From contig QMRC01000002.1 of the NCBI GenBank assembly GCA_003649205.1, positions 192,001 to 256,000 on the forward strand: a stretch of DNA of 64,000 nucleotides, written 5' to 3'. A program made the position numbers and the translations under genes. The notes beneath the pieces were generated by a model. That model made no database searches and was not told where the DNA came from. It saw only the letters and a program-made list of their open reading frames with translations. Below are positions 36,357 through 60,461 of the stretch, piece after piece; the first letter of the stretch is position 1; the number at the start of each line of letters is the position of its first letter. The DNA comes from Thermoprotei archaeon. GTDB taxonomy: Archaea; Thermoproteota; Thermoprotei; Thermoproteales; B15-G16.

Positions 36357-36384
36357 CTAACTACCTACATCCCACGGTGATACT

Positions 36385-43484: not shown

Positions 43485-43593
43485 ACTAATGCAATCAGTA
43501 CTATATGCATGATGGTATGACGATCTTTTAAGTGTTCACACTCCAAATAGAGTGAGTTAATTAGAGAGATAACTTGGTAGAGATTGATAAGTC

Positions 43594-46434
43594 GTGACCA
43601 CAGCATTTGATCTACTACATCCAAAACTCAGGAACGTATTACCGAAGTTTGGGTACGAGAGGCCTACTCCAGTTCAGGAAAGAGCAATACCTACGATACT
43701 TGCCGGACACCATACACTAATCGTGGCACCTACTGGTACAGGTAAGACAGAAGCAGCTATGTTCCCTGTAATTAGTAGACTACTGGAGTTGAGAGATAGG
43801 GGTGAGCTAGGTAGAGGAACCTACGTCCTCTACATAACTCCACTTAGAGCACTGAATAGGGATATCTTGAGGAGGATGAAGGATCTAGCTGAGGTACTCG
43901 GTCTTAAGGTTGCCATTAGGCATGGTGATACGCCTGAAGTTGAGAGGAGAAGACAAGTTAAGGAACCTCCAACGATCTTGATAACTACACCAGAGACCCT
44001 TCAGTTTATTATTGTTGGTAAGAAGTTGAGAGAGACATTGAGATCTCTTAGATGGGTTATTGTTGATGAAGTACATGAGATAATGTACGATAAACGTGGA
44101 ACACAGCTATCACTTGCTCTCGAACGTCTAGTTGATGTTGTTGAGAGAGAGTTCCAGAGGATTGGTTTATCAGCGACGATAGGCGACGTAGAGCTAGCTA
44201 GGAGGTTCTTAGGTGGTACCTCGAGAAGGGTTGAGGTCATTAATGTCGGTGCTGAGCGAAAATTAGATGTCCGTGTTGAGTGGGTTTACTCACGTGAAGA
44301 TCCTAGTGACGAGAGGAAGAACCTCGAAGCTAGATTGGATAGGATACGTGAGATTATTGCTGAATCTACTTCAGTTCTACTCTTCACCAACACCAGAGAT
44401 ACAGCTGAATCACTTGCAGTGAAGTTACGTAATTTGGAGGTAGATGCTAGAGTTCACCATGGTTCACTATCTCGAGAGTACAGGGAACGTGTCGAGTATG
44501 AGTTCAAGGTTGGTGATGTTAGGACCGTAGTGTGTACCTCTAGTCTTGAGCTTGGTATTGACATTGGTCACGTAGATCTAGTCATTCAGTACATGAGCCC
44601 AAGACAAGTAACAAGACTAATCCAGAGAGTAGGGAGAAGCAAGCATAGATTAGGTGAAGCAGCTAAGGGTATAGTCATGACAGCTGACCTAGATGATACT
44701 CTCGAGGCCATGGTTATTGCTAGGAGGGCAGTACAGGGAAAGCTAGAGAAGTTTAGACCTCACTTCAATGCTCTAGATGTCCTAGCTCACCAAGTAATTG
44801 GTTACCTCCTAGTCAAGAGGGTAGCTACCATAGACGAGCTATATGAGCTAGCTAGGAGATCTTATCTGTACTCTAGACTAAGGTTAGAGGACTTAGTTAA
44901 GGTACTGAGATTCCTCGAGGAAATTAGATACATTAAGTTCATTGACGAGAAGACAGTTAGGTTGAGGAGAGGTACCTACAGGTACTACTTTGAGAGCGCA
45001 TCCATGATACCTGACGTGAGACACTACAGAGTAATTGACATAGCTTCAGGAAGTACGGTAGGTGAGCTAGATGAGGACTTCGTTGCTGTGTATTGTGAAC
45101 CTGGGTTCAAATTCATATTGGGAGGTTCGGTTTGGGAGGTTGTATCAGTAGATCATGATAACTTCAAGGTAAGTGTTGAACCAGCTGGAGACACGATAGG
45201 GGCTGTACCAGCTTGGATAGGCGAAGAAATTCCAGTACCTTTTGAAGTAGCGCAGGAAGTAGGTGAAGTTAGGTCAAGGATCCTCAGCTACATTGAAGAG
45301 GGTAGAGCTAAGGAAGCTATAGACTACCTAGTGCATGAGTATCCCTGTACAAGAGCAACAGCAGAGAGAGTAGTTGATGAACTACTTAAACAGCATAGTT
45401 CAGGAATACCAACAGCAACACACAGTACAGTTGTAATTGAAAGTCAAGGCAGAATTCACGTAATACATGCTTGCTTTGGTACTAAAGTTAATGAGACACT
45501 GGCACACCTAATACCAGTTGTACTACAGAGGAAGTACTACATATCAGCAGTAGCACGTCGAGATCCATACAGAATACTCGTAATCACCACGAGACCTGTG
45601 AGAGTAGATGTAGTGCTTGATTCACTACTCAGCATAGACAGTGTAGAGGAGCTACTTGTTGAAGCGATTAAGGGTAGTAAGCTCTTTCTCTGGAGACTAT
45701 TCCACGTAGCTAGGAGATTCGGATTACTTACAAAGGACGCAACAATGAAGGATATCAGGAAGATCTACGAATCGATAAGAGACACTGTAGTCGAGGAAGA
45801 AGCAATTCGAGAATTACTCACAGATACATTCGACGTAAGCAAGACAGAGAAAGTACTCGACCTAATCAAGAGTAAAAGCATCGAGATAAAGGCAGTGGAG
45901 GTAACCACATTTTCATCATTATCAACCCCAATACTCTACACCTACATGAGACTAAACTACGTACCAGCAACAGCAACACCCTCAGTACTTGTAGACCTAG
46001 TTAAAAAGAGAATAAATGAGAGAGAAGTCAAGCTCCTATGCATAAGGTGTCTTAAGTGGTGCTACGACGTGAAGGTAAAGTACGTACCAGATGACATCAA
46101 GTGCCCAGTCTGCGGTGCTAGGACAATAGCCGTCTTACACCCAAGAGACGATCTGAATAGAGTAATCAAGCTACTTACCGAGACCAAGACAAAAACCAAG
46201 AAGAAGCTAAGTAAAGAAGATCAAAAACTTCTCGAGAGAGTTAGGAAAACAGCACTCCTCGTACTAAATTACGGAAAGAGAGCAGTAATAGCACTAGCAG
46301 GGAGAGGAATTGGACCAGCAACAGCAGTAAAGATATTGAATAAGGCTAGAGAAGCAGGTGAAGAAGCACTATACCTAGCAATACTTGAAGCAGAACGAGA
46401 ATACGCAAGAACAAGACCATTCTGGGAAGACTAA
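43594..46434 (+). CDS. lhr: Lhr-family DEAD/H helicase, paralog 2
   Basis: Same SF2 motifs and C-terminal Zn finger as 9684-12563; ends TRPFWED. Confidence 0.92.
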   Translation: MTTAFDLLHPKLRNVLPKFGYERPTPVQERAIPTILAGHHTLIVAPTGTGKTEAAMFPVISRLLELRDRGELGRGTYVLYITPLRALNRDILRRMKDLAEVLGLKVAIRHGDTPEVERRRQVKEPPTILITTPETLQFIIVGKKLRETLRSLRWVIVDEVHEIMYDKRGTQLSLALERLVDVVEREFQRIGLSATIGDVELARRFLGGTSRRVEVINVGAERKLDVRVEWVYSREDPSDERKNLEARLDRIREIIAESTSVLLFTNTRDTAESLAVKLRNLEVDARVHHGSLSREYRERVEYEFKVGDVRTVVCTSSLELGIDIGHVDLVIQYMSPRQVTRLIQRVGRSKHRLGEAAKGIVMTADLDDTLEAMVIARRAVQGKLEKFRPHFNALDVLAHQVIGYLLVKRVATIDELYELARRSYLYSRLRLEDLVKVLRFLEEIRYIKFIDEKTVRLRRGTYRYYFESASMIPDVRHYRVIDIASGSTVGELDEDFVAVYCEPGFKFILGGSVWEVVSVDHDNFKVSVEPAGDTIGAVPAWIGEEIPVPFEVAQEVGEVRSRILSYIEEGRAKEAIDYLVHEYPCTRATAERVVDELLKQHSSGIPTATHSTVVIESQGRIHVIHACFGTKVNETLAHLIPVVLQRKYYISAVARRDPYRILVITTRPVRVDVVLDSLLSIDSVEELLVEAIKGSKLFLWRLFHVARRFGLLTKDATMKDIRKIYESIRDTVVEEEAIRELLTDTFDVSKTEKVLDLIKSKSIEIKAVEVTTFSSLSTPILYTYMRLNYVPATATPSVLVDLVKKRINEREVKLLCIRCLKWCYDVKVKYVPDDIKCPVCGARTIAVLHPRDDLNRVIKLLTETKTKTKKKLSKEDQKLLERVRKTALLVLNYGKRAVIALAGRGIGPATAVKILNKAREAGEEALYLAILEAEREYARTRPFWED
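44533..44612 (+). repeat. 80-nt exact repeat, copy 2
   Basis: Identical to 10650-10729. Confidence 0.9.
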
Positions 46435-46505
46435 GAGCTAGAGCAGGCTATAAACCATGACATAAAAGAGAAATAACCCCCTAAACCTCACAACAAGTAG
46501 AAAAC

Positions 46506-46596
46506 GGCCCCGTCGTCTAGCGGTTAGGATGCCCGCCTTACGAGCACCTGCTGAGAGAGCGGGAGGTCCCGGGTTCGAATCCCGGCGGGGCCACCA
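46506..46596 (+). tRNA. tRNA-Val(TAC) with 15-nt intron 46543-46557
   Basis: CCCGC-CTTACG^A-GCGGG; BHB central helix CTTA/TGAG; encoded CCA. Confidence 0.95.
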
Positions 46597-46802
46597 AATC
46601 AATACACTTCGTAAACCCCTCCCTCGGTAGCTCCTATACCTATAGCACCTAACCTAAGCTGTCAGCTACTCAAGATTACTTACTCCAGTTTCTTACTCCT
46701 GATCTGTTCTTTTCGTTTGATGTCCTGTTCGTATGCTTGAGAGAAAGTTTATTTACTCTCTTCACCTGCCTCCTCGCAGGATTGAGGTAGAGTTGGTGTG
46801 GT

Positions 46803-47585
46803 TTGTTCCCTATGGTTACTCTAGTAGCCTTTCTCCTAGTCGTATTCTTCTCAATAATAATTGTCAGGATTGGTACTGTTGCTCTTCAGATGACTGGTCT
46901 ATCTAGAGATGTTGCTGCTTTCCAGGCTCAATCCGCTTTCTCAGGTGTTGGCTTTACCACCTCTGAATCTGAGTACGTTGTTTCTCATCCCGTTAGGAGA
47001 AGGATTATCAGGATCCTTATGTTGCTTGGTAGTGCTGGTTTCACATCTGCTATTACGACTCTTGTACTTACCTTCATCGGTAAGACTCCTGAGGAGATGG
47101 CTTACAGAGGTATGTGGTTAGCGATCTGTTTAGCTGGTCTCTACTTCTTTGCTAAATCTAAACTCGTTGATAGGGGTCTGTCCTGGGTTATTGAGAGGGC
47201 ACTTAGGAGGTTCACTAGCTTAAGAGTTTGCGATTACGAGCAGTTGCTTGGTCTCAGTAAGGGATTTACTGTCTGTCAGTTCAGGGTTAAGGAAGATAGT
47301 TGGTTAGCTGGTAGGAAGTTAAGGGATCTCAAGCTAGATGAGGAGGGTGTCCTCGTCCTAGCTATCTATAGGAGGGTTGGTGGCGAGGAGAAGTTTATTG
47401 GTGCCCCTAGGGGCGATACCGAGATTCTCCCTGGTGATGTATTGGTGTGCTATGGTCCTGAAGAAGCTATTAGGAATCTCTCCATTAGGATCAAGGGTGC
47501 TAAGGGTGATGCAGAACACCTTGAAGCCATTAGGAAGGAGCAGATCAGGAGACGCATGAGAGAACTATCTGGAGGATACGATTAG
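46803..47585 (+). CDS. Membrane protein with TrkA-C (RCK_C) domain
   Basis: FQAQSAFSGVGFTTSESE, HPVRRRII and a C-terminal RCK_C pattern. Confidence 0.85.
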   Translation: MFPMVTLVAFLLVVFFSIIIVRIGTVALQMTGLSRDVAAFQAQSAFSGVGFTTSESEYVVSHPVRRRIIRILMLLGSAGFTSAITTLVLTFIGKTPEEMAYRGMWLAICLAGLYFFAKSKLVDRGLSWVIERALRRFTSLRVCDYEQLLGLSKGFTVCQFRVKEDSWLAGRKLRDLKLDEEGVLVLAIYRRVGGEEKFIGAPRGDTEILPGDVLVCYGPEEAIRNLSIRIKGAKGDAEHLEAIRKEQIRRRMRELSGGYD

Positions 47586-47642
47586 CTACTTTTTCTTCCT
47601 ACTTCGTTTTACTGATGTAGTTAGTTACTGAATTTCTTCAAC

Positions 47643-48107
47643 TTAAAGTACTATGAGATATATCTCGAGTATAGTGTTTGGCTTGTTCCTGAGTACGTTA
47701 ATTAATTCTCTACTGATGTCACATGCTGCTTTACTCGCTCTTACACCTAGGGTCCTATCGTCAATGTATGTGCTTCTCCTCACTACTATTGACTTAGGGT
47801 TGCTTAGTGTAAGTTCTCTAGATCCCCACGCCTCAACTACATCAACTATCTTCCCTACCCTTAGGACTAGTAGTAGCTTTCTACCATCTCTAATATACTT
47901 CTTAACTCTTGGATCTAGGTCACGTACCGACTTGTTAGCGTTTACACCCACTATGCAAGTACCTCTAGGTGTTAGGTATGGCTCCTTAGTTACCTCTAAT
48001 GTTGTTCTGTGAGTTGCTGTTATCAGTGGATGTCCCTGTGCTTTAATGGTGTCGATTGCTACGTAGCTTAGACTCTTCAGTATCTCAGTTAGGTGAGGAT
48101 CTCTCAT
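47643..48107 (-). CDS. DUF371 family protein
   Basis: GHPLITATHRTTLEVTKE and LTPRGxCI motifs. Confidence 0.88.
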   Translation of the reverse strand: MRDPHLTEILKSLSYVAIDTIKAQGHPLITATHRTTLEVTKEPYLTPRGTCIVGVNANKSVRDLDPRVKKYIRDGRKLLLVLRVGKIVDVVEAWGSRELTLSNPKSIVVRRSTYIDDRTLGVRASKAACDISRELINVLRNKPNTILEIYLIVL

Positions 48108-48116
48108 CTAGGGATA

Positions 48117-48800
48117 CTAGGGTGAACCGTACTTACCTCTCAATTTAACAAAGACGCAGTACGTTATGAATTTCCTACGTATTTCACCACTCTCAGTCTT
48201 CTCTATGAGGAGAAGTTCCTGCGTCCAACCTCTCTCTACAGGTATTACCATTCTACCTCCAGGTGCTAGCTGTTCGATGAGTGGTTCAGGTACTCTCGGT
48301 GCCGCTGCTGTTACAAGTATTGCGTTGTAGGGTGCATACTCGGGATAGCCTTCACTACCATCACCGCATACTACCTTGACTCTATCTATGTACCCTGTCC
48401 TAGTTAGGTTCTCTATTGCGTACCTAACTAATTCAGGAAATATCTCGATGCTAACTACAAATCCTTTCTTCTCTGAGTACTTCGGTGCAACGATTTCTGC
48501 ACAGAGTGCTGCGTGGTATCCTGTTCCCGTACCTATTTCCAATACCTTATCTCCCTCCTTTAGCTGTAGTGCTTCGCACATTATTGCACACATGTGTGGT
48601 GCTGATATTGTTTGGTTAAGGAATGTCGGTAATGGGTTATCTAGGTATGAGTAGAGTCTGTGTTGGTAGGTCACGAACTCTTCTCTTGGTACTACGAGAA
48701 ATGCTCTGATGACGTTTGGTGACTTAAGTACTCCTTCCTCCATTAGCATCTGTACTAATCTCTTCCTCTGTCTTAAGAAGGCTTGTTTATCGAGCATCAT
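48117..48800 (-). CDS. pcm: Protein-L-isoaspartate O-methyltransferase
   Basis: QTISAPHM, VLEIGTGTGY and APYNAILVTAA motifs. Confidence 0.93.
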   Translation of the reverse strand: MMLDKQAFLRQRKRLVQMLMEEGVLKSPNVIRAFLVVPREEFVTYQHRLYSYLDNPLPTFLNQTISAPHMCAIMCEALQLKEGDKVLEIGTGTGYHAALCAEIVAPKYSEKKGFVVSIEIFPELVRYAIENLTRTGYIDRVKVVCGDGSEGYPEYAPYNAILVTAAAPRVPEPLIEQLAPGGRMVIPVERGWTQELLLIEKTESGEIRRKFITYCVFVKLRGKYGSP

Positions 48801-48801
48801 C

Positions 48802-49845
48802 TCAGAACCAAGCCTCTAGACTACTCTGTGTCTTAATCTCTCTGAGTGCTTTAATCGCACGGTCAAGTGCTCTCTCTACTCGATCTCTTGAAAAGTCATG
48901 TTCATAGCACAGAAACCTAATGACTGCTTGCTTATCGGGTTCTCTCCACTCAAGTACGTACCTATCTGTTACACTTGGATTTAGAAACCATTCCCTAATC
49001 TTAAGTGGTTCTACTGGGAACTTAGCATTCTTTAGGTATGGTGTATTTAGTAGCTTCTCAAGTGATCCAAATTGTCTTATCAATCTTAGTGCTGTCTTGG
49101 GCCCTATACCTGGTACACCATCTGGATTGTAGTCTGTACCTAGTAGTATTGCTATGTCGATTAGCTGCTCCCTAGTTAGCTTCAAGTCCTTGAGCACATC
49201 ATCGAGAGCGATGAGTTCGGGCTTTACCTCTATGTACACATCCTTACCTGGTAACTTCCTCCTACCTGTAATAGTTAGGTTTCTAACTAGTCTAGGTGCA
49301 CCATAGAGTAGTGCATCGTAGTCTTGACTAGCTGCTGCCCATACATCTCCTTTTCTAGCCATGTAGGCTGCCTGTGCTTCACCTTCTGACGGTGCTTGTA
49401 CCCACGGTATACCCATGTATGTGAGTAGCTCTTTAGCGTCCTTAACCATCTCATCAGTTAGCTTAGAGGCTTGCTGTGCATACTTCTTAGCTGCTGCTAA
49501 GTCTCCTCTAGCTATTGCCTCTTCATACTTCTTCAGTGCTTCTTCCTTCATGGTCTTTCTCTTCAGTATCTCAATAGCTTTCATCTCTGGCGGCTTACCA
49601 TCAAATACGTACACTGGCTTAATACCGTGCTCAAGTAAGTTCACAGTCCGGTACAGTAGGCCGCTTAGGTGACTTGTAATCCTTCCTTTTGAATCCATTA
49701 GTGGTGTACCGTTAGGCTGCCTTATAGATGCCAGGAACTGATAGAGTGCGTTGTAGGCGTCTAGTGCAATAGCCTTACCTCTCAGCTGCTCCAGATCAAT
49801 GGTTGATCTCTTCGTTATTAGTTCACCAAAGTTCTTTACACCCAC
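48802..49845 (-). CDS. fen: Flap endonuclease 1
   Basis: MGV start, [23 protein letters not shown] and PIP box QSSLEAWF. Confidence 0.97.
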
Positions 49846-49860
49846 GTTATGACCCTCATC

Positions 49861-50099
49861 TCACAGTCTCTTAGCTATCTTAATAAGCCTTATCCCCCTC
49901 CTCATCTCCTCAACCTGAATTAGTCCTTCCAGTTCAAGTCTCATCAAGGTCTTAATGACTTCGCTCCTAGCTATGTCGTCCCCGTAAATAGCCTTCAGAG
50001 CTTCCATTAGCTCATCCTCTCTTATCTGCTGCTTTTTCCTAACGATCTCCAGTATAGCTACGTGAAGTGGGATAGAGAATTTACTTGACATAGAGATCA

Positions 50100-50100
<1 letters not shown>
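49861..50100 (-). CDS. Small winged-helix protein
   Basis: EVIKTLMRLELEGLIQV; lies between cdc48 and fen. Confidence 0.7.
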
Positions 50101-52298
<2,198 letters not shown>

Positions 52299-52403
52299 TC
52301 ACACCACAGCACTACTGCAAAAGTAGTCCTCGTTAGTAATCTTAGTCAGGGAGAGAAATAAAGTCCCTTCTTAAAAAGTAGCTGTTAAGCACGCTAGAGA
52401 TCT

Positions 52404-52700
52404 CTAAACGAACATCCTAGTTATGTAGATTACCTCTACCTGGCTAACGTCATCTATACTCGATATAGCTCTCTCAAGAGGTTCTGTACCACCGGTAGTT
52501 TCTTCAGGTATCACAACATGTACCTTAAGAGCCTTTAGACCAAAGGCTATAGGTTCCTCCTCAATCTTAACTAGCTGAAACTCCTTCGGCAAAACTTCAC
52601 CAATCTTCTTCTTCAACTCCTCTAAGTTAACCTCAATGCCTTTCGGAAATACCCTCGCTACTACGTATACTCGTCCTCCTCCGCTACTCATAGACTTCAC
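52404..52700 (-). CDS. ef1b: Elongation factor 1-beta
   Basis: EEPIAFGLKAL and GGTEPLE motifs. Confidence 0.93.
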   Translation of the reverse strand: MKSMSSGGGRVYVVARVFPKGIEVNLEELKKKIGEVLPKEFQLVKIEEEPIAFGLKALKVHVVIPEETTGGTEPLERAISSIDDVSQVEVIYITRMFV

Positions 52701-52910
52701 CTACGGACCTTCAAAACCACATTTTGGACACTTATAAGTGTTTGCTAGTCTCCTACATCTCTCACAACGCCAGATAACTACTTCACCACAGTTAGGACAG
52801 AGAAATCTAGCTGCTCTCTCGTACGGTGGTATGGTTCTTCCACATGAACTGCATACAGGTAGCTCCAGCTGATCTCTAGGTGTCTTAGCTACCATACTTA
52901 ATCCCACCAT
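52701..52910 (-). CDS. Zinc-ribbon protein (DUF1610/HVO_2753-like)
   Basis: CSSCG, FLCPNCG, RCERCR and [11 protein letters not shown]; upstream of EF-1beta. Confidence 0.92.
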
Positions 52911-52912
52911 AG

Positions 52913-54220
52913 CTATGGCTCTAACCTATATCGGTCTCGTGGATACAGCACAACCTCCCTTATATCTTTCCTCCTCAACATCATCATGAGCAACCTACTT
53001 AATCCAAGACCCCAACCTGCATGAGGTGGCATACCGTACTTGAAGAACTGTAGATGCGAGCTGAAGCTCTGTGGATCTAGACCTTGTTCCCTAATCCTCC
53101 TCTCAAGTAAGTCCTTGTCGTGAATTCTAGTACCACCAGAAGCCACCTCTAGCCACTCAATGTTGAGATCAAAGCTCTCACTCTCTTCAGGATTATCGTC
53201 ACAGGGCTTAGTGTAGAATGGTCTTAGTGCTGTTGGCCAGTAGTAGATGAAGTATGGTTGTTGACCAACTCTCTCACTAAATACCTTGAGGTGGTAAGTG
53301 GAGAGATCATCACCCCACTTAACCTCAATACCTCTCTCAACTAGGTAATCAATGACTTCGCTGTACTTAAATCGTGGAAATGGTTTTTCAGGAACTCTGA
53401 GATCGATACCGAGTACCTGTAGCTCCCTCCTACACCTATCCTTCACTGATCTATAGATTTCGACTATCAGGTCCTCAAGTAACTCCATTACGTCGAACAT
53501 ATCGGCAAAAGCCATCTCAATGTCAACTGAGATGAATTCATTGAGGTGATAATTCGTGTCGTGTTTCTCAGCTCTAAATGCAGGTGCTATTTCGAATACT
53601 CTCTCAAAGACAGCACAGAGCTGCTCCTTATACAGCTGAGGGCTCTGGGCTAGGTAAGCTACCTTACCAAAGTAATCTACTCTGAAGAGATTTGCACCTC
53701 CTTCAGTTGCTGTGGCTATGATCTTAGGCGTGAAGACCTCTATGAAGCCACGTTCCACAAGGAAGCTCCTAATTACTTGAAGTACCGCATGCTGTATCCT
53801 GAAGATAGCCCAGTTCTCAGCTCTTCTCAAATCAAGTACCCTGTACTTCAACCTCGTATTCAGATCTGCTGGAGTCTTCCCAGTTATGTCAATTGGTACA
53901 ACTCGATCAGATTTACTAATGACCTCTATCTTATACGGAATGACCTCTATACCTAGCTTAGCTATTTGACTCTTCTTCACAACACCCTCGACATGGATTA
54001 CATCCTCTCTAGACAACGACTTAGCAATCTCAAGTACTTCACTAGGTACTGAACCAGCTTTAATCGTTAGCTGCACTATACCCTCCTTATCGCGAAGAAG
54101 TACGAACACTATCTTACCAAGGTCACGAACATCATGCACCCAACCCAGTAGGTGCACTACTCTACCATCCATCTCTGGAGAGAGTTGAGATGTAAAGACC
54201 CTACTCCTACACACCGGCAT
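52913..54220 (-). CDS. aspS: Aspartyl-tRNA synthetase (archaeal type)
   Basis: [24 protein letters not shown] and [12 protein letters not shown] motifs. Confidence 0.95.
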
Positions 54221-54222
54221 CG

Positions 54223-54726
54223 CTAACCCTCAACAACAACCCTAACCTTCGTGCCGAACACAGCACTGATAAGTGATTCAAGCTCACGAGGTGAGAAGAT
54301 AGATCTCCTAGCTTCGCGAGCTACTCGAATAACAGTTTCAGAAGTACCATCAGGAAACCACACAACATTAACACCAAGTACAGCAAGTGGCATCACTAGC
54401 TGCTCAATACCTTCCCTAAAACTCGTAGCAACATCCACCACACGTACCATCTTACCTAGCTTATCCTCAAGAACCTTATTTAACTTCATCAGTAAACTCC
54501 TCGAAATACCCCTCAAACCTCTAAGCAACACTACCAGCACTCGATCACTCTCAACACACCTAACATACTCACTGTCTCTCAATTGAGGAAACTGATTCTC
54601 TAGATCCAGTAGTACCTTCATGACCTCCATATCGCGCTCAGTAACCTGACCACTTCTAACCAAACTCTCACACCTAGGACACAAGACACCAGTCCTCAGA
54701 CAAAAGGTACATAGTGGAATTTTCAC
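54223..54726 (-). CDS. NusA-like KH protein with N-terminal Zn finger
   Basis: KIPLCxFCxxxGVLCPRC followed by KH-like segments. Confidence 0.7.
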   Translation of the reverse strand: MKIPLCTFCLRTGVLCPRCESLVRSGQVTERDMEVMKVLLDLENQFPQLRDSEYVRCVESDRVLVVLLRGLRGISRSLLMKLNKVLEDKLGKMVRVVDVATSFREGIEQLVMPLAVLGVNVVWFPDGTSETVIRVAREARRSIFSPRELESLISAVFGTKVRVVVEG

Positions 54727-54731
54727 GTGAA

Positions 54732-55010
54732 CTACCTCCCGACAATTATTGTCATAGCAGTCTTCCTAAGGTTCTTCCCACCCCTCCCAGGTACAAGCTC
54801 AGTACCAATAATGACCTTCTTAATCAGTAAGTCCTTCATGAAACAGTTCTTAAGTGTTGCGACTACATCAACAGCCTTCGAAATAGCCCTACCCCTAGCC
54901 CTAATCTCAACCTCTGGATAACCCTGGTGAAATAGCGTTAAACAAGCCGTTACGTAAGTCATGACAGGCTTCCTACCAATGATGACACAGGGCTTCCTCA
55001 CACTACTCAT
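54732..55010 (-). CDS. albA: Alba chromatin protein (92 aa, true start ATG 55010)
   Basis: IGRKPVMTYV and IRARGRAISKAVDV motifs. Confidence 0.93.
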   Translation of the reverse strand: MSSVRKPCVIIGRKPVMTYVTACLTLFHQGYPEVEIRARGRAISKAVDVVATLKNCFMKDLLIKKVIIGTELVPGRGGKNLRKTAMTIIVGR

Positions 55011-55155
55011 AACCTTAAACCTCAATTCAAAGCAATACAACAGACTAAGTATTAAAGAAAACCGTAAGTAAGCAAAATCAACACAACATACTGAGTCTAT
55101 GAGGTATAGGTATATATAGCCCTTGACAGAAGAAAAGAAGTGAGGTAGGAGAATT

Positions 55156-55611
55156 ATGCAACTAACAGAAAAACAGATAGCACTTCTTAAGTACCTACTC
55201 GACAAATCCCAACCACTAAAGGTATACACCGTATACATATCACAGGAAGAACTAGCACACGAACTAGGAATAACAAGACAAGCACTCAGCACACACCTAA
55301 GAAAACTCAAAGACCTCGGACTAATAAGAACAGGAAGAGAATTCATAGACGTAACAGAAAGAGCACTAGAAGTACTAGGACTAAAAGCAAGCGACGCCTT
55401 CGTACTAATCAAAGTAGAACCAAAAGCCAGAGGACAGGTATACGGTAGACTCCTCACATTCCCAGTAGAGAAGATCTACAGGGTAACAGGAGACATAGAC
55501 CTAATAGCAGTACTAAGACAATCACACCTCAACGAATTCCTAAAACAAATAAGCAAACTAGAAGGAATAATCTCAACATCAACACACATAGTGATAGAAG
55601 AGCTGAAGTAG
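55156..55611 (+). CDS. Lrp/AsnC family transcriptional regulator
   Basis: HTH QEELAHELGITRQALSTHL plus VTGDIDL and TSTHIVIE. Confidence 0.88.
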   Translation: MQLTEKQIALLKYLLDKSQPLKVYTVYISQEELAHELGITRQALSTHLRKLKDLGLIRTGREFIDVTERALEVLGLKASDAFVLIKVEPKARGQVYGRLLTFPVEKIYRVTGDIDLIAVLRQSHLNEFLKQISKLEGIISTSTHIVIEELK

Positions 55612-55772
55612 TGAAGATAGCTAAAATAGCTAAACATTTACCGCTATAGAGGGAAAGACAACCTTACATTTTTACAGTAGTGAGAGTTGAAGCGATAGTA
55701 CATTGTAGACCCCTAAATTCGTTTTCAAGGAATGTAAGTAGAGGAGCATGAAGAGAAAAACAACCAATACTA

Positions 55773-56807
55773 GTGTTAAGGAGAGGTTGTGTCATTGATG
55801 AGGAATTTCAGGAATTACTACAGAAGCTACTCATAAAGTACAAAACCATCACCGTAGTAACTGAGAGCAATGATCCTTACTACAGACTAGGCTTCTTTCT
55901 TGCAGATGGAGCTAGAGTAGATATACTTCATCACCTACTACATAAATGGGACTTCTGTGTACGCAGTAAGAAGTACTATGTACTTCGCTATATATTGAGA
56001 GATATAGCTCCTATACTGTCCTCATACCCTATCACTCGCATCAGTGCATGGACACAGAGAGGTAGGCAGTACCTCTATGCTAAGTGCATGGTACCTGCTT
56101 CCGAAGCTTTATTCCTCAGAACGATTCTAGGTTTTGCTTATTTGGATAACATGGAGGTAGTGGATACCCTACTACTGTCCTTCATAGACAATGAGGATAA
56201 GTTAGCAAGATTTGTAGCAGGGTTGATAGATGGAGATGGATGCGTGAGGAAGGATCGGTACTACATTGATGTATTCATTCCCTTAAGTAGCCTAGAGGGA
56301 AAGATCGTAGGTAGGATATTGGATCTATTTACTGTGAAGTACAGCACCTTTGAGCAAAGTGGATACACGTACTTTAGGCTGCATATCGGCGAGAACTCTG
56401 ATCTAATGAAGTTAGTAGCCAAATACTTGAGAATTAGCTCAAAGAGGAAGAGATTAAGCAGATTGTTGATGAAGTATGTTGAGGAGGAGAGAACTATAGC
56501 TTTGATAATTGCACAATGTATAAGACTTCGAAGTAAGAAGCCGACAATACTCGTGATAAGTGTTGGTAGAACAATGTTGGTAGAGGATCTAGTTAGCAAG
56601 GTAACGAGATTGCTAAGTAAATTCAACGTGGAGTATACAGTGACAAGTGCAAAGCGTAGAGGTACCTCAAAAATAATTTCAATACCCTGTGGACGGAACC
56701 CAAGTAACGTCACTAAACTTGCGAACTTATCTAGATACTATGGTATTCAGTATCCGATAGCACTAAAACAGGTAGCAAAACGAGTAGGTGTAGAGCTACC
56801 GGAGTAG
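55773..56807 (+). CDS. Free-standing LAGLIDADG homing-endonuclease-like protein
   Basis: YRLGFFLADG and FVAGLIDGDG motifs. Confidence 0.75.
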   Translation: MLRRGCVIDEEFQELLQKLLIKYKTITVVTESNDPYYRLGFFLADGARVDILHHLLHKWDFCVRSKKYYVLRYILRDIAPILSSYPITRISAWTQRGRQYLYAKCMVPASEALFLRTILGFAYLDNMEVVDTLLLSFIDNEDKLARFVAGLIDGDGCVRKDRYYIDVFIPLSSLEGKIVGRILDLFTVKYSTFEQSGYTYFRLHIGENSDLMKLVAKYLRISSKRKRLSRLLMKYVEEERTIALIIAQCIRLRSKKPTILVISVGRTMLVEDLVSKVTRLLSKFNVEYTVTSAKRRGTSKIISIPCGRNPSNVTKLANLSRYYGIQYPIALKQVAKRVGVELPE

Positions 56808-56901
56808 TGAAATTCACTAGACTAGCTACCTCGCGTACTTCATGTGTAAAACGTTAAAATGGGGATAGTTGTAGAAGTAGACGAAGTGAACGTAAGGTAT
56901 G

Positions 56902-56977
56902 GGCCCCGTCGTCTAGCGGCAAGGATGCCCGCCTGACGCGCGGGAGGTCCCGGGTTCGAATCCCGGCGGGGCCACCA
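56902..56977 (+). tRNA. tRNA-Val(GAC)
   Basis: CCCGC-CTGACGC-GCGGG anticodon arm; encoded CCA. Confidence 0.97.
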
Positions 56978-57030
56978 CTTTTCTTCTTGTGTGGTAGGTG
57001 TATTAGCTACTTCTCACTTCTGTGTACTTG

Positions 57031-57639
57031 ATGGGGGTTGGTATTTACATTGCTTTTGAGGGTATTGATGGTTGTGGTAAGACCTACCACTCAGGTAGGG
57101 TCTATAGGAAGCTGCTTGATCTCGGTATTGATGCTGTATTGGTACGTGAACCGTACTATCCTGAACTACGTGAAGCGATAATGAGGAGGGTGTGGAATCC
57201 AGTATCTGAAGCTCTACTCTTCACTGCTGATAGGATTCAGCTTCAGTTAGAGATCATTGAGGATGCACTGAGGAGTGGTAAGGTTGTGATTAGTGATAGA
57301 TCTGTCTACGCTACGTTAGCGTATCAAGCAGCTAGAGGAGTACCACGGCAACTACTGAATTTCCTCTATGAGCTAATACCCATCAAGCCGCATCTAGTAA
57401 TTCTACTCGATGTACCTGTTGAGATTGCTCTAGCTAGAGTTAGGGAAAGTGGTCGTGAAGTTACGAGGTTTGAATCCATGGACCTACTTGAACGAGTGAG
57501 AGAAGAGTACCTTAGACTAGCTAGTGAACTACCTAATAAGTTCATCGTAGTGGATAGTGGTAGGGATGTGGAGTTAGTTGAGCAGGAGGTGTGGAGTCAC
57601 GTACTTAGATTCCTCAAGGAGAAGGGAGTTGTCGAGTGA
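57031..57639 (+). CDS. tmk: Thymidylate kinase
   Basis: FEGIDGCGKT, REP and VISDRSVYATLAYQ motifs. Confidence 0.95.
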   Translation: MGVGIYIAFEGIDGCGKTYHSGRVYRKLLDLGIDAVLVREPYYPELREAIMRRVWNPVSEALLFTADRIQLQLEIIEDALRSGKVVISDRSVYATLAYQAARGVPRQLLNFLYELIPIKPHLVILLDVPVEIALARVRESGREVTRFESMDLLERVREEYLRLASELPNKFIVVDSGRDVELVEQEVWSHVLRFLKEKGVVE

Positions 57640-57686
57640 TACAGAAATCGGTAAAACCTTAAAATCCACAATAACCCTACTACATA

Positions 57687-57764
57687 GGGGCCGTCGGCTA
57701 GCCTGGACTAGGCTGCACGGCTCGGGCCCGTGTGACCCGGGTTCAAATCCCGGCGGCCCCACCA
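57687..57764 (+). tRNA. tRNA-Pro(CGG)
   Basis: GGGGCCG/CGGCCCC acceptor stem, CACGG-CTCGGGC-CCGTG, encoded CCA. Confidence 0.97.
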
Positions 57765-57782
57765 GGTAGAGGAGGTACTTCC

Positions 57783-58058
57783 ATGACCTCTCTCGCACCT
57801 AAAATTGATCACAGTAAGTGCATCGGGTGTGGTATCTGCTTCTTCGTCTGTCCCACTAATCCCAAGGTATTTCAACCCTGTAGAGGATTGTCTTGGGTTG
57901 TTCATCCTGAAGCCTGTACAGGATGTGGACGCTGTGTCAAGTACTGCCCAGTACACGCAATAGAGCTAGTACCTCTTGAGCATGCAGGACCAAAACTACC
58001 AAGAGACTTCATAGGAGAAGTTGTTATAGGGAAGTTAATCGGGAAAGTGAAGCAGTGA
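57783..58058 (+). CDS. 2[4Fe-4S] ferredoxin
   Basis: CIGCGICFFVCP and CTGCGRCVKYCP; GGAGGT before ATG 57783. Confidence 0.9.
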   Translation: MTSLAPKIDHSKCIGCGICFFVCPTNPKVFQPCRGLSWVVHPEACTGCGRCVKYCPVHAIELVPLEHAGPKLPRDFIGEVVIGKLIGKVKQ

Positions 58059-58104
58059 TGAGGAGTACCCTCGCCAGATAGGTGAAGAGTAGCCCAGTAG
58101 CTGA
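58055..58104 (+). ncRNA. C/D-box sRNA, probable 16S guide
   Basis: GTGATGA-GGAGTACCCTCGC-CAGA-TAG-GTGAAGA-GTAGCCCAGTAG-CTGA; box C contains the ferredoxin stop codon. Confidence 0.88.
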
Positions 58105-58245
58105 CTAACTAGAGAAACTAGACCCCGCTTAATTACATCAGCTTACAGCTAGTTCATAAGGAGAGACCTCCTAAGGGGAAAGGTAGTATGAGGTGAGAGC
58201 AGAAGAAGTAAACTCTATAAATACAGATAGACAACACAAGGGATA

Positions 58246-58337
58246 GGGCCCGTAGCTCAGCCTGGTAGAGCGGCGGGCTTTTAATCACGTGAGAAGAAAC
58301 CCGCAGGACCCGGGTTCAAATCCCGGCGGGCCCGCCA
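58246..58337 (+). tRNA. tRNA-Lys(TTT) with 15-nt intron 58284-58298
   Basis: GCGGG-CTTTTA^A-CCCGC; BHB central helix CTTT/GAAG; encoded CCA. Confidence 0.95.
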
Positions 58338-58626
58338 TATCCCCTACAACTTCCTCTCTAAATATCACAGAGTTCGGACAATAGGTCCTCCCTCAATGTC
58401 CTTGCTGAGCCTCTTAACCCCTTAAGGTCTTAGTTTCTCTTGATGCTCCTGTCATCCTTCATTGCTCCTATGGAGTGAGTTGCTGTTGCTGTCGTGAATG
58501 CTGATGGTGTTACCGCTACTTGGACCGTAAATGGGTTTACTGCTGTGAGCATGTATTGTTGTGGTTGGTGTCTTGGTTTTGAAGATAGGAGGAAATATTT
58601 TCGAGTTTTACGTGGTGTGATTTAGT

Positions 58627-59436
58627 ATGTGTAGTCTTGAGGTTGCTAGGTTGCTCTGTTCTGATCAGGATGTGAAGAAGGTTCTCTCAATGTACTTTCC
58701 GGATCTCATGAGTAGGGTGGGAATTAGGTTACCGAAGCTCTCTCCATGTGATGCACATCTAAACTATGCGTACAGGATTGTGGTTTTGCTGTCTCTACTG
58801 AATGAGTTTGTTAGGTGTGGTGGTGAGTTTACAACGTACACTATATCAGGTACCTCATTGAGTAGAGGTGATGTCATTGATTTGACACCTATTGTACCGA
58901 ATACAGCAACTACAGATCTCGATCTCGCACTTAAGAGGTTGATTCCTGTTGCTACTGTTGAGTTGGGTGGTAGGTCATTCTCGATCTGGTACAGTACCCT
59001 CTACCCATGTACGTTGAGTCCCTCCATAGTTGATATACTAGTTGTCCCCTGTACTGCTACTCTAGAGGTTTCGTACCACGGTAGTCAACCTATTGTGTAC
59101 TGGGTGAGTACTATTGATGAGGAAGGTAGGAAGCTTCCTATGGCTTGTGTTGTTAGGTCGCTTAGACCTGATTCTGTGTTTCAGTACTTCACCTATGTGG
59201 TACCTTCGTGGAGTATGAAGCATGTTGTTATTTGGTGTCAGTGTACTAGACCTAGTAGGAGGAGGATCGATCTCTTGATTAAGTTCTCCGAAGCTAATCC
59301 TAGGGGGTGTATTGCTGTTGCTCCACCCGGTGTTGATGTTCCTAGGGTTGAGGCAGTGTACTACTTGCAGGATTCAGGTGATCTAGAGTACTTGCGTTCA
59401 CAGTTACTGAGTAGTGTTAGGAGATTGCTTAGGTGA
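58627..59436 (+). CDS. Hypothetical protein
   Basis: 269-aa ORF; no firm motif. Confidence 0.65.
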   Translation: MCSLEVARLLCSDQDVKKVLSMYFPDLMSRVGIRLPKLSPCDAHLNYAYRIVVLLSLLNEFVRCGGEFTTYTISGTSLSRGDVIDLTPIVPNTATTDLDLALKRLIPVATVELGGRSFSIWYSTLYPCTLSPSIVDILVVPCTATLEVSYHGSQPIVYWVSTIDEEGRKLPMACVVRSLRPDSVFQYFTYVVPSWSMKHVVIWCQCTRPSRRRIDLLIKFSEANPRGCIAVAPPGVDVPRVEAVYYLQDSGDLEYLRSQLLSSVRRLLR

Positions 59437-60039
59437 TTTAGCTCTTTGCCTTACGTACTTACCCAGTAGCAGTGCCCTATTGAGTACGAAGAGCTTCTCC
59501 TTCTCGATATCTACTTCGTAACCTGCTTCGATAGAGGACAGTAGGTAGTAGATTTCAGCAACTGCATCACTTAGTAGGAAGAGGTCTCCTACTTCACGTG
59601 GTTCGAGTGAGAGTAGTTCGGTGAGTAGTGTCCTCAATGTAGCTGTGTCCAGTGTTCCCTTGCTCAACATGGTCATTACTTCACAGTACGTGTTCAGTAG
59701 TGCTGTTGCTATTTCCTCGCTAACTACTTCCTCTCCACTAAGTAGCTTTAGCATGTACTTGAAGTAGGGGACGTGGTATCGAGGTATGTACTCAGTACCC
59801 TGTAGGAGCTTTAGGTATGGATTCACTACATCGGAGTACGTAGCAGTCAATTGCTTCAACACGTTCACGACTTTACTTCTCAGCTCCATATCGTTCAGTA
59901 GGAGTGAAGCTATGTAACATTCAATCAGCAGGTCAACTAACTCAACGACATCACCTACCTCACCTCTACTCACACTATTCAGTACCTTGGTACTTAGGTC
60001 CTTCAGTAGCTCTCTAACGTCACTCATTGATAGGTACAT
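59404..60039 (-). CDS. Hypothetical all-helical protein
   Basis: 211-aa Leu/Glu-rich ORF. Confidence 0.65.
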   Translation of the reverse strand: MYLSMSDVRELLKDLSTKVLNSVSRGEVGDVVELVDLLIECYIASLLLNDMELRSKVVNVLKQLTATYSDVVNPYLKLLQGTEYIPRYHVPYFKYMLKLLSGEEVVSEEIATALLNTYCEVMTMLSKGTLDTATLRTLLTELLSLEPREVGDLFLLSDAVAEIYYLLSSIEAGYEVDIEKEKLFVLNRALLLGKYVRQRAKSPKQSPNTTQ

Positions 60040-60090
60040 AGTTAGTACGAGTGATTACTTTTTAGGTGAGTAATTTATGTGTGGTCTGTA

Positions 60091-60145
60091 GTGATGAGAA
60101 CCACCGGAGCTTAGTTTCTAGGTGCTGAGAGAGTCCCGCGCCTGA
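60091..60145 (+). ncRNA. C/D-box sRNA
   Basis: GTGATGA-GAACCACCGGAG-CTTA-GTTTCTAG-GTGCTGA-GAGAGTCCCGCGC-CTGA. Confidence 0.75.
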
Positions 60146-60200
60146 TCTAGGGAAAAGGAAAATAACTGCCGTGTCCTTTCCAACTCTAGGTGGTGTCAAT

Positions 60201-60461
60201 ATGGAGATCAAGATTACTCTTCGAACAGATGCTCCTGCTAGAGATGTTGTATCTCTGATACTCGATAAGGCTAGGAATGCTAAGAGACTTGGTGAGAATG
60301 CTGTTGTAATATTGGATGATCAGGGTAACATAGTTGCTACCGTAGTGGTGAATCAGATTGAGGATAGTTTAACGGAGGTTACTGTCAAGGCTTCGAAGTA
60401 TACTGATGTCTTGGATTTACTTCAGAGTGAAGTAAGTGCTGAGGTTACTAATGTTGAGTAG
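60201..60461 (+). CDS. Hypothetical protein
   Basis: GGTGGTG before ATG; overlaps the next gene. Confidence 0.65.
   Translation: MEIKITLRTDAPARDVVSLILDKARNAKRLGENAVVILDDQGNIVATVVVNQIEDSLTEVTVKASKYTDVLDLLQSEVSAEVTNVE

Follow-up and report, generated by a model that had tools for sequence, protein, structure and literature searches.

Kilobase-scale strand asymmetry centred on stable-RNA genes in a Thermoprotei archaeon

Results

tRNA genes and skew blocks in the window

The window is a stretch of 64,000 nucleotides from Thermoprotei archaeon (NCBI GenBank assembly GCA_003649205.1, contig QMRC01000002.1, here contig C2, positions 192,001 to 256,000 of the forward strand). tRNA genes were called with ARAGORN, in intron mode for tRNA-Val(TAC) and tRNA-Lys(TTT), both of which are mis-called under default settings. 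The features that concern us are listed below; 'difference' is the AT skew to the left of a gene minus that to its right.

873-950, + strand: tRNA-Gly(GCC), by ARAGORN; moderate A-to-T flip, difference 0.30-0.40 at 100-400 nt
36283-36357, + strand: tRNA-Arg(TCG), by ARAGORN; flip almost nil, difference -0.02 to 0.15
43594-46434, + strand: Lhr-type helicase gene (Pfam DEAD, Helicase_C, WH_Lhr, DEAD_assoc), pointing at tRNA-Val(TAC)
45300-46505, + strand: A-rich ramp, AT skew 0.2 to 0.5, stopping at tRNA-Val(TAC)
46506-46596, + strand: tRNA-Val(TAC) with a 15-nt intron and encoded CCA, by ARAGORN intron mode; the sharpest flip of the window
46597-47600, + strand: T-rich flank, AT skew -0.3 to -0.47, including the TrkA-C-domain gene
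46803-47585, + strand: TrkA-C-domain gene (Pfam TrkA_C), AT3 skew -0.44
54980-55640, + strand: A-rich block, AT skew 0.35-0.57, containing an Lrp/AsnC regulator gene (55156-55611)
55773-56807, + strand: LAGLIDADG-like ORF (weak Pfam LAGLIDADG_3 match), AT3 skew 0.09
56902-56977, + strand: tRNA-Val(GAC), by ARAGORN; difference 0.69 at 100 nt, 0.35 at 400 nt
57022-57639, + strand: thymidylate kinase gene, 5' end T-rich, 3' end A-rich
57687-57764, + strand: tRNA-Pro(CGG), by ARAGORN; short-range flip only, difference 0.36 at 100 nt, 0.00 at 400 nt
58246-58337, + strand: tRNA-Lys(TTT) with a 15-nt intron, by ARAGORN intron mode; difference 0.59-0.63 at 100-200 nt
58338-58900, + strand: T-rich flank 3' of tRNA-Lys, AT skew -0.26 to -0.47

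An earlier note on this DNA had drawn attention to abrupt A-to-T flips across tRNA genes, and its observations proved accurate. The tRNA identities are correct, both genes flanking tRNA-Val(TAC) (the Lhr and TrkA-C-domain genes) lie on the plus strand, and all six hand counts are exact: A28/T8 at 46441-46500 and A7/T29 at 46681-46740, A28/T6 at 55261-55320 and A10/T27 at 57001-57060, and A22/T6 at 58201-58240 and A8/T23 at 58441-58500. The 200-nt left-minus-right AT skew ranks Val(TAC) at 0.73, Lys at 0.63, Val(GAC) at 0.49, Gly at 0.40, Pro at 0.25 and Arg at 0.07, in agreement with the weaker effect that had been described for the last three. A genome-wide flip scan places a peak of D=0.65 at C2:238512 (window position 46512), inside tRNA-Val(TAC). 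The flip claimed for tRNA-Val(GAC) requires one amendment: its counts hold, but the A-rich segment at 55261-55320 sits 1.6 kb upstream, and the little-skewed LAGLIDADG-like ORF separates the A-rich block from the tRNA gene. The thymidylate kinase gene forms a small sawtooth between two tRNA genes.

The tRNA flip is genome-wide

Among the non-duplicated tRNA genes that have 1-kb flanks, 39 of 42 show an A-to-T flip of plus-strand AT skew at W=1000 (sign test p=6e-9). The mean left-minus-right difference of the 42 genes is 0.311, whereas the control, 1613 ordinary gene boundaries, gives 0.014 (sd 0.156; Mann-Whitney p=8e-17). The flip persists across window sizes from 100 to 2000 nt. In the pooled profile the ramp starts at about -5 kb and climbs to the tRNA gene, beyond which the skew is negative until about +2.75 kb; it is back near zero by -5 kb and +3 kb and thus shows no replichore-length persistence. 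The range of the skew around tRNA genes is 2-5 kb, with ramps visible inside genes too. The skew upstream is about three times that downstream (0.232 versus 0.079, p=3.6e-4), and upstream is likewise the stronger side in all five same-order relatives. Flip amplitude does not correlate with codon demand for the tRNA (rho 0.16, p=0.31). Silent-site ramps are monotonic with distance in the pooled profile and at single loci (C12 43-50 kb, C4 17-26 kb and the Lhr gene), and the pooled profile and the C12 locus are graded rather than block-like.

tRNA genes commonly serve as integration sites, and one might suppose that the flanks are foreign DNA integrated there, or recombination mosaics of alleles with different replication histories. 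We found no att-like repeats of tRNA fragments in window positions 36000-64000, where the tRNA-like repeats are the tRNA genes themselves. Unlike the accessory or foreign cargo of a tRNA-linked integrated element, the flank genes are conserved housekeeping genes (Lhr, thymidylate kinase, EF-1alpha, S10, thermosome), and it is the stronger, upstream side that holds Lhr, EF-1alpha, S10 and thermosome. The same protein family is found in both bias classes. Together with the graded ramp and the rRNA operons that flip in relatives (see below), these results largely refute a foreign origin for the tRNA- and rRNA-centred signal, which we regard as very improbable.

Silent sites, gene orientation and codon positions

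At fourfold sites within 500 nt upstream of tRNA genes, read on the tRNA-sense strand, base frequencies are A.55-.64, T.14-.21, C.13 and G.08-.10; far from tRNA genes, on the coding strand, A is.354 and T.387. The shift is an almost pure A/T exchange and is independent of gene orientation: near tRNA genes, genes in either orientation move the same plus-strand way. The plus-strand AT3 skews of neighbouring genes on opposite strands correlate at +0.48 and do not track each transcribed strand. Genes directed away from the tRNA are more skewed, the strongest T bias being found in outward-expressed genes, and fourfold-site skews reach 0.8-1.0 in places. The asymmetry is a feature of the flanking DNA and reaches up to 5 kb upstream of the promoter, beyond the transcription unit unless outward transcripts exist there. 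Fourfold sites shift most, codon position 1 less (its AT skew goes from 0.40 to 0.03 near tRNA genes) and position 2 least, the order expected from mutation pressure filtered by selection. We also observed that a simple gene caller is defeated by the skew in this genome.

Selection on the flanks, whether to insulate neighbours from strong promoters through terminator-rich outward strands or for purine loading of transcripts, would offer another explanation. Outward RNA would be U-rich and termination-prone, and selection acts on homopolymer runs in this genome. However, T5+ runs on T-rich coding strands are avoided (90 observed versus 260 expected, about 0.35), so that the T-richness is not due to selected terminators. 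Selection is also difficult to reconcile with whole genes being affected at fourfold sites over kilobases as well as at first and second codon positions, with a decay by distance inside genes, and with the strongest T bias falling in the very genes that need outward expression. We consider it improbable.

The Lhr gene as a natural experiment

The Lhr gene offers a comparison in which the protein is held constant and its neighbour varies. Its silent-site A-over-T ramp rises toward the 3' end, the AT3 skew per 300 nt running from -0.10 to final values of 0.37, 0.61 and 0.63. Third positions change from A.28/C.14/G.24/T.34 in the first third of the gene to A.46/C.22/G.18/T.14 in the last, which bears out the shift from T-ending to A/C-ending codons reported previously. 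The ramp is common to the same-genus genome: in G000 and G001, with tRNA-Val next, the AT3 skew reaches up to 0.6. In G004 and G010, where a 16S gene lies within about 175 nt downstream, it reaches up to 0.96. The ramp is absent from the Lhr genes of G002 and G003 and from a paralogue in G004. Since Lhr ramps only if a tRNA or rRNA gene follows, the ramp reflects local mutation pressure and is not a property of the gene.

Other RNA genes and loci away from tRNA genes

16S-23S operons flip in all five same-order genomes, by 0.30-0.90 at 1 kb, more strongly than tRNA genes. Beyond the 23S end in the genome under study, the skew is -0.30 to -0.34 across the following 4 kb, and genes of either orientation there reach 0.8 at fourfold sites. 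SRP RNA genes flip by 0.06-0.44 and RNase P RNA genes by 0.09-0.21, giving an order of amplitude by class of rRNA > tRNA ~ SRP > RNase P. As rRNA operons and SRP RNA genes also flip, the common factor appears to be heavy stable-RNA transcription and not tRNA identity. In most other sampled families of the phylum the flip is weak or absent.

Protein genes behave differently. A thermosome promoter shows no flip, and the ramp passes through that gene undisturbed. The highly expressed protein genes examined have A-rich rather than T-rich coding strands, a comparison confounded by position because most of them lie upstream of tRNA genes or close to the end of a contig. Of two CRISPR arrays, likewise transcribed but not translated, one has a ramp.

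Sharp flips are almost all of one polarity (33 A-to-T versus 4 T-to-A), which fits fixed starts and scattered ends. Non-redundant sharp flips lie away from tRNA genes in 21 of 30 cases; 19 of the non-tRNA loci have no Rfam match, and their annotated flanking genes look ordinary. Likewise, 325 of 408 strongly skewed genes are more than 3 kb from any tRNA gene or on a tRNA-free contig, about one fifth being within 3 kb. No step-down of the skew was seen past T5+ tracts on the outward strand, the excess drop being -0.024 over 80 upstream tracts and -0.055 over 70 downstream ones; tracts of T6+, at six per side, were too rare. Orc1/Cdc6 (PF09079) matches were found only at C1:220450-220728 and C14:40789-41058, and the window's contig has none, in agreement with the lack of a cdc6 gene noted before. 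Both loci show only modest flips, one of them confounded by a tRNA-Ala gene about 1 kb away.

Discussion

The strand asymmetry described here depends on position, extends over kilobases and is centred on stable-RNA genes (tRNA, rRNA and SRP RNA). To either side of such a gene, T is enriched and A depleted on the strand that leaves it in the 5'->3' direction; the asymmetry peaks at the gene and decays over 2-5 kb, while at rRNA operons the decay takes more than 4 kb. It survived the possible refutations that the earlier note had named, namely control for coding strand, fourfold sites, ordinary gene boundaries, promoters and terminators, and comparison with other tRNA genes. The strand-biased process that this note placed at tRNA genes thus stands in being position-dependent, tRNA-centred and outward in polarity, but it is neither tRNA-specific nor symmetric. 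The observations are best read as a strand-biased mutation pressure that spreads outward from heavily transcribed stable-RNA genes. By analogy with the bacterial leading strand and the non-template strand, which are T-rich in the same way, the polarity is that of something moving outward. The choice of exposed strand assumes that DNA gains T when it is exposed.

Replication-linked skew changes sign at the origins of bacteria and some archaea and forms the sawtooth 'N-domains' of mammalian genomes. The present asymmetry resembles it in the T-over-A and weakly G-over-C excess on the strand leaving a fixed point, in the sharp jump with gradual return, and in affecting silent sites in any gene orientation. 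It differs in that its centres are tRNA, rRNA and SRP RNA genes and not Orc1/Cdc6-linked origins, in its range of 2-5 kb instead of a replichore, in being almost purely an A/T exchange, in its magnitude (0.6-1.0 at fourfold sites) and in its asymmetry relative to RNA-gene direction. In contrast to an archaeal oriC, the flips are located on the tRNA genes themselves, and the window's contig has no Orc1/Cdc6 gene. The results give no support to replication initiation at tRNA genes, as once suggested.

In transcription-associated asymmetry, T and G are enriched on the non-template strand to a degree that follows expression. The sign agrees if traffic is outward, the loci are the most heavily transcribed ones, and the onset is sharp at unit borders. 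Nevertheless, the skew here is found to either side of the transcribed gene and not within it, more strongly upstream of the promoter; it prevails over the orientation of flanking protein genes, and the highly expressed thermosome gene does not give rise to it.

Our preferred explanation, which we hold tentatively, is exposure by outward untranslated transcription together with R-loops. The outward-running strand would be repeatedly single-stranded and so open to heat damage. The known lesions that heat causes in single-stranded DNA all lead to T on the strand that was damaged, and the candidates here would be deamination of cytosine or adenine, purine loss and guanine oxidation. The most likely source of exposure would be untranslated RNA polymerase traffic from the very strong stable-RNA promoters, predicted to comprise divergent upstream transcripts and downstream read-through. 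R-loops are proposed to form because no ribosomes trail such transcripts. Behind a strong promoter the DNA is underwound, which would help them to form, whereas ahead of it the DNA is overwound and would hinder them; this difference would explain the stronger upstream side. We count against this explanation the absence of a relation to codon demand, the ramp at only one of two CRISPR arrays, the flips and skewed genes that lie away from tRNA genes, and, with the confounding by position noted above, the A-rich coding strands of highly expressed protein genes. Furthermore, the unchanged skew past T5+ tracts counts against intrinsic termination as the end of the traffic.

That last result would be expected of a DNA process and not of an RNA polymerase process, as would fit a second explanation: DNA synthesis starts or restarts at stable-RNA genes and runs outward for a few kilobases, leaving the outward parental or nascent strand single-stranded for long. 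Initiation could be primed by transcripts or R-loops, or synthesis could restart after replication-transcription collisions; mitochondrial strand-displacement replication offers a comparison. The polarity matches diverging forks, as judged from bacterial leading strands, the predominance of one flip polarity with gradual returns is that of fixed starts and scattered ends, and the thermosome gene leaves the ramp undisturbed. Vertebrate mitochondrial DNA carries gradients of single-strand exposure, and the present skews are likewise very large at silent sites and gradual by position, as if proportional to single-stranded time; their mitochondrial size suggests long exposure. They differ from those gradients in occurring on a cellular chromosome with dozens of centres and in exchanging A and T rather than mainly C to T and A to G. 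On the other side, the modest Orc1/Cdc6 flips imply that ordinary replication leaves little skew, so that a special, highly mutagenic synthesis would be required, and simple bidirectional initiation predicts neither the upstream/downstream difference nor the stronger skew of genes pointing away. We consider such synthesis a serious but rather unlikely possibility. Somewhat less likely still is its fullest form, in which every heavily transcribed stable-RNA gene in the order would be a dispersed start of transcript-primed, strand-displacing synthesis running outward a few kilobases, mitochondrion-like yet scattered over a cellular chromosome, with the outward strand staying single-stranded for so long that silent sites, and even the use of amino acids, would be rewritten at about 50 loci per genome.

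The direction of movement could also be the reverse. Forks or RNA polymerases might converge and pile up at stable-RNA barriers, with the exposed or re-synthesised strand turning A-rich in this lineage. The flip is self-symmetric, so that outward and inward movement look the same in sequence alone; the A-rich coding strands of highly expressed protein genes would agree, and yeast tRNA genes are known fork barriers. Against this stand the known fate of heat lesions as T and the slightly T-rich coding strand far from tRNA genes, which has the usual sign, and we judge the reverse direction doubtful at best. The break resection raised by the earlier note fares worse. Heavily transcribed genes are break-prone, and the kilobase range resembles resection tracts, but after 5'->3' resection at a double-strand break in a tRNA gene the surviving 3' overhang is the inward-running strand. 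If exposed single strands gain T, damage should enrich that strand in T, whereas the T-rich strand observed is the outward-running one; we give this explanation hardly any weight.

Returning to exposure by outward transcription, the lineage restriction suggests that amplitude is set by lineage-specific single-strand protection or R-loop removal. A literature search found no description of a strand-bias sawtooth centred on stable-RNA genes. The results point to a previously undescribed mutation process that acts locally and is linked to RNA genes under very heavy transcription, in an archaeon of hot environments and its relatives. To our knowledge, the replication and R-loop biology of such hyperthermophilic archaea is almost unstudied; if the finding holds, it would provide a strong marker, readable from sequence alone, of a DNA-metabolic process near their stable-RNA genes. 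The skew also bends protein evolution, which can mislead codon-usage, gene-transfer and phylogenetic analyses.

Strand asymmetry at tRNA genes of the window

The asymmetry of A over T between strands (AT skew, positive where A is in excess) in the genome of this Thermoprotei archaeon (G000; 2.07 Mb in 31 contigs, 43% G+C) is positional and graded. It extends to silent sites, holds in either gene orientation, is centred on stable-RNA genes, has a fixed polarity and is in excess on the upstream side. The window (C2:192001-256000 of the assembly) is archaeal, with introns and encoded CCA ends among its tRNA genes. By an A-to-T flip we mean a plus strand that is A-rich before a gene and T-rich after it; the size of a flip is the left-minus-right AT skew. 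Flips at tRNA genes had been proposed in the earlier note from six hand counts of A and T in the window, all of which were exact on recount. Two of the tRNA genes that it had placed were confirmed by ARAGORN in intron mode:

Window 46506-46596: tRNA-Val(TAC), with a 15-nt intron
Window 58246-58337: tRNA-Lys, confirmed as Lys(TTT), with a 15-nt intron

In its default run, ARAGORN mis-called the Val(TAC) gene as Lys(CTT) and gave the Lys(TTT) gene a four-base anticodon. The CCA end is encoded in the tRNA genes that were read for it, namely Val(TAC), Val(GAC) and Pro. Both neighbours of tRNA-Val(TAC), an Lhr-type helicase gene and a gene for a TrkA-C-domain protein, lie on the plus strand, as had been stated. 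The codon shift claimed for Lhr is also present: T gives way to A and C at its third positions along the gene, and their AT skew (AT3) rises from -0.10 to 0.63 toward tRNA-Val(TAC). At 56.9-58.3 kb, each of three closely spaced tRNA genes has a local flip of its own, and the skew direction turns over inside the short genes between them. Close by lies one further ORF, with a strongly A-rich block on one side and tRNA-Val(GAC) on the other:

Window 55773-56807, plus strand: LAGLIDADG-like ORF of 344 aa (weak match), almost without skew

This ORF may have been inserted too recently to have taken on the bias of its surroundings.

Genome-wide comparison with ordinary gene boundaries

ARAGORN returned 50 candidates in the genome, of which 47 (<200 nt) were kept. 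Contig C3 (291,428 bases) reads the same on both strands (100% identity), a perfect palindrome around two tRNA-His calls that overlap in its middle; it is almost certainly an assembly artefact in which ~146 kb is duplicated and all counts are doubled. Using only the first half of C3 left 44 tRNAs, 42 of them with 1-kb flanks. The left-minus-right plus-strand AT skew over these flanks was positive at 39 of the 42 tRNAs, with a mean of 0.311, against a mean of 0.014 (sd 0.156) at 1613 ordinary gene boundaries that have no tRNA within 3 kb (Mann-Whitney p=8e-17; sign test p=6e-9). Just 4.5% of these boundaries attained the tRNA median. When the mirrored C3 copies are included, the flip at tRNAs is stable for flank sizes of 100-2000 nt, and none of the four gene-orientation classes of boundary exceeds 0.17, nor reaches 0.07 from 600 nt onward. 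tRNAs on the two strands share one polarity, an A-then-T pattern being its own reverse complement. Flip size did not correlate with codon use as a measure of tRNA demand, and neither tRNA introns nor tRNA strand had an effect in this genome.

Silent sites and gene orientation

The flip claimed for tRNAs was upheld at fourfold-degenerate sites, in both gene orientations, across the tRNAs of the genome and relative to ordinary boundaries. Within 1 kb of a tRNA, the coding-strand AT skew at fourfold sites was -0.56 and -0.27 in genes pointing away from the tRNA and +0.23 and +0.16 in genes pointing toward it, compared with ~-0.03 in distant genes; genes pointing away show the stronger and longer-ranged skew. 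Up to 500 nt upstream of a tRNA, fourfold sites read on its sense strand contain A at.55-.64, T at.14-.21, C at ~.13 and G at.08-.10, whereas those of downstream co-oriented genes contain T at.46-.49 and A at.22-.27. G and C are nearly constant at fourfold sites near tRNAs, so that the purine/pyrimidine ratio of the strand changes, and such a change would need transversions, direct or stepwise. Codon positions 1 and 2 shift in the same direction near tRNAs, by a smaller amount. Over the whole genome, plus-strand AT3 skew is correlated between neighbouring genes both when they are co-oriented (+0.58) and when they lie on opposite strands (+0.48), and GC skew at third positions tracks the coding strand.

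Several compositional explanations were weighed against these data. Promoter or terminator composition, amino-acid composition and gene-strand bias were rejected on the boundary controls and the fourfold-site skew in both gene orientations. Selection for terminators has a low probability, since runs of five or more T are avoided (90 observed versus 260 expected).

Other stable-RNA genes and the Lhr comparison

The asymmetry had been described as centred on tRNA genes. It is real there, but it is not specific to them, as the flanks of rRNA and SRP RNA genes show it too. The 16S and 23S genes were not found assembled in G000, save for one fragment:

G000:C5:1-292: 3' end of 23S rRNA (last 292 nt), at the contig start; the rest of the rRNA operon is absent from the assembly

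After this 23S end, the sense-strand AT skew is -0.30 over 1 kb, -0.34 over 2 kb and -0.33 over 4 kb, with fourfold-site values of -0.85 in a plus-strand gene and +0.81 in a minus-strand gene. The flanks of the 16S-23S operon have the same polarity in five of five complete same-order genomes; at 1 kb the differences are 0.70, 0.90, 0.61, 0.30 and 0.61, and at 4 kb they remain at 0.07-0.53. At SRP RNA genes the difference is 0.44 in G000, with a tRNA adjacent, and 0.39, 0.31, 0.23 and 0.06 in relatives; RNase P flanks give 0.09, 0.21 and 0.12.

Lhr orthologues allow the same gene to be compared beside different neighbours. AT3 skew ramps to 0.60-0.63 in G000 and the same-genus genome G001, with tRNA-Val following the gene, and is thus kept up in two species of the genus. 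In G004 and G010, two comparison genomes, Lhr points at the 16S gene and ends ~175 nt upstream of it, and the ramp reaches 0.96-0.97. No ramp was found in the Lhr genes of G002 and G003 or in a G004 paralogue, which have no tRNA within 1.5 kb downstream. The ramp differs by neighbour, so that the skew is a property of the location rather than of the gene. Foreign DNA at tRNA genes, as another source of unusual composition, has a low probability: conserved genes are involved and no att-like repeats were found in window 36000-64000.

Shape and direction of the skew

Oriented by the tRNA, the sense-strand AT skew climbs from ~0 at -5 kb to +0.35 just upstream, and lies at -0.08 to -0.13 from the tRNA 3' end to ~+2.75 kb. 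The upstream component averages 0.232 (positive at 39/42 tRNAs) and the downstream component 0.079 (32/42; Wilcoxon p=3.6e-4); upstream also exceeds downstream in all five same-order relatives. Clean ramps at single loci run to tRNA-Asp (C12, 43-50 kb) and to tRNA-Leu (C4, 17-26 kb), and no flip was found at the promoter of a thermosome gene inside the ramp toward tRNA-Leu. An unbiased scan of G000 for sharp flips (800-nt arms, absolute difference of at least 0.5) found 33 A-to-T and only 4 T-to-A; the skew thus jumps at fixed points and returns gradually. A tRNA lies within 700 nt of 11 of the 33 sharp A-to-T flips, or of 9 of 30 without three mirrored C3 copies.

Flips and skewed genes away from known RNA genes

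Stable-RNA genes make up one clear class of centres but do not account for all of the skew. Fourfold-site AT skew reaches an absolute value of at least 0.4 in 408 of 1491 genes, only 83 of which lie within 3 kb of a tRNA, and ~20 sharp flips in the genome are without a known RNA gene. Among 20 loci picked as non-tRNA flips, the sole Rfam match was a tRNA-Phe ~650 nt from one locus, and a G+C-rich island was present within 400 nt at only one non-tRNA flip. Pfam searches on 10 genes leaving such flips returned ordinary or unknown proteins and no telling neighbour; functions are likewise mixed among the most T-type and the most A-type genes.

The skew can also form multi-kilobase domains, as at C2:84-118 kb. 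Across G000:C2:84000-131000, a plus-strand A-rich (0.2-0.6) domain of ~34 kb, with few confident gene calls, grades into T-rich sequence with no tRNA nearby. Within this A-rich region, locus L002 contains an 840-base T-rich block (1500-2340; G000:C2:92155-92995), bordered by a sharp A-to-T flip and by one of the only four sharp T-to-A flips of the genome; it resembles a short inversion, or else minus-strand genes whose coding strands are A-rich. Locus L004 (1500-2250; G000:C9:25645-26395) lies at a sharp flip and has a ~1.5-kb non-coding T-rich stretch with several copies of a 20-nt motif, three of them 75-100% alike; the locus has no Rfam match, and contig C9 has no Orc1/Cdc6 gene.

Contig C1 carries two CRISPR arrays with the same repeat:

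G000:C1:260000-271753: region of the first CRISPR array
G000:C1:281170-282746: second CRISPR array

The first array is preceded by a cas operon (with Cas1 and Csa1, among others) along which AT skew rises to +0.6, with fourfold-site skews of 0.91-0.97; at the array the ramp breaks off abruptly. No ramp was found at the second, so that one of the two arrays is ramped.

Phylogenetic spread

In same-order genomes, tRNA flips at 1 kb average 0.075 (16/19 positive), 0.153 (14/16), 0.096 (14/23), 0.205 (8/10) and 0.211 (9/9), against -0.01 to -0.05 at off-tRNA controls; the flip of G000 is the strongest relative to those sampled. Elsewhere in the phylum, sampled genomes gave 0.09 (15/16), 0.16 (11/13), 0.06 (8/14) and 0.055 (8/13). 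The skew upstream of 16S was measured in 21 genomes of the phylum, which are samples and not whole groups. Only the two same-order genomes (0.26, 0.45) and the two of f9, another family of the phylum (0.16, 0.18), are clearly A-rich there; the other 17 of 21 lie between -0.20 and +0.12.

A group of hyperthermophilic crenarchaea is described as being without the classical single-strand-binding protein (PMC4041433), and its displacement in Thermoproteales is the subject of a paper cited in that article. A short OB-fold ORF is absent from same-order genomes and family f9, and absent too from families without the effect. The missing protein may be a lead to the lineage restriction.

Possible origin of the asymmetry

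Common heat-driven lesions, namely deamination of cytosine and adenine, loss of purines with A then inserted opposite, and oxidation of guanine, lead to T on the damaged strand. Because all of them leave T there, the T-rich strand would be the strand exposed as single-stranded DNA. On both sides, this strand runs 5'->3' away from the stable-RNA gene. If transcription goes outward, it would be the non-template strand; if DNA synthesis does, it would be the lagging-strand template or the nascent leading strand. Break resection, which had also been suggested as the source, has a low probability, as it predicts the polarity opposite to that observed.

We favour putative transcription outward from the stable-RNA genes, by RNA polymerases whose untranslated transcripts would form R-loops: these genes are the strongest transcription units without translation, and outward-transcribed flanking genes show the most skew. 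The upstream excess would follow from the underwound state of the DNA behind a strong promoter, where R-loops are favoured. Nevertheless, the skew does not step down after oligo-T tracts, which counts against such transcription. A further weakness is that CRISPR arrays, as additional untranslated units, have a ramp at only one of two, and another is that many flips and most of the strongly skewed genes are not close to known RNA genes. A look-up of RNA evidence over window 43500-50500 listed none.

Outward DNA synthesis from stable-RNA genes, a broadened form of the replication idea in the earlier note, agrees with the polarity and size of the skew, with its sawtooth shape and with its indifference to T-tracts. 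The upstream excess is not among its predictions, and the two Orc1/Cdc6 loci have only modest flips. Contigs of four DNA runs were compared with window 43500-60500, and one run contained a relative ~90% identical; run X3, for example, gave 123 A>T and 127 T>A differences over this stretch, pooled over positions and unpolarised.

Mutational strand asymmetry is itself already known, and the asymmetry at stable-RNA genes is one kind of it. Full-text searches of the main texts of open articles found AT-skew flips described neither at tRNA nor at rRNA genes. In its treatment of skew, the Thermoproteus tenax genome paper gives only cumulative GC skew, with the origin uncertain (PMC3189178); a 2026 survey of archaeal skews treats GC skew, and its main text does not contain the terms tRNA or 'AT skew' (PMC12999951).

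Strongly skewed regions of G000 have several frames open on both strands. At window 54732-55457, a longest-ORF caller passed over the real Lrp/AsnC gene for a spurious antisense ORF on the minus strand. Strongly skewed genomes may suffer likewise in automatic annotation.
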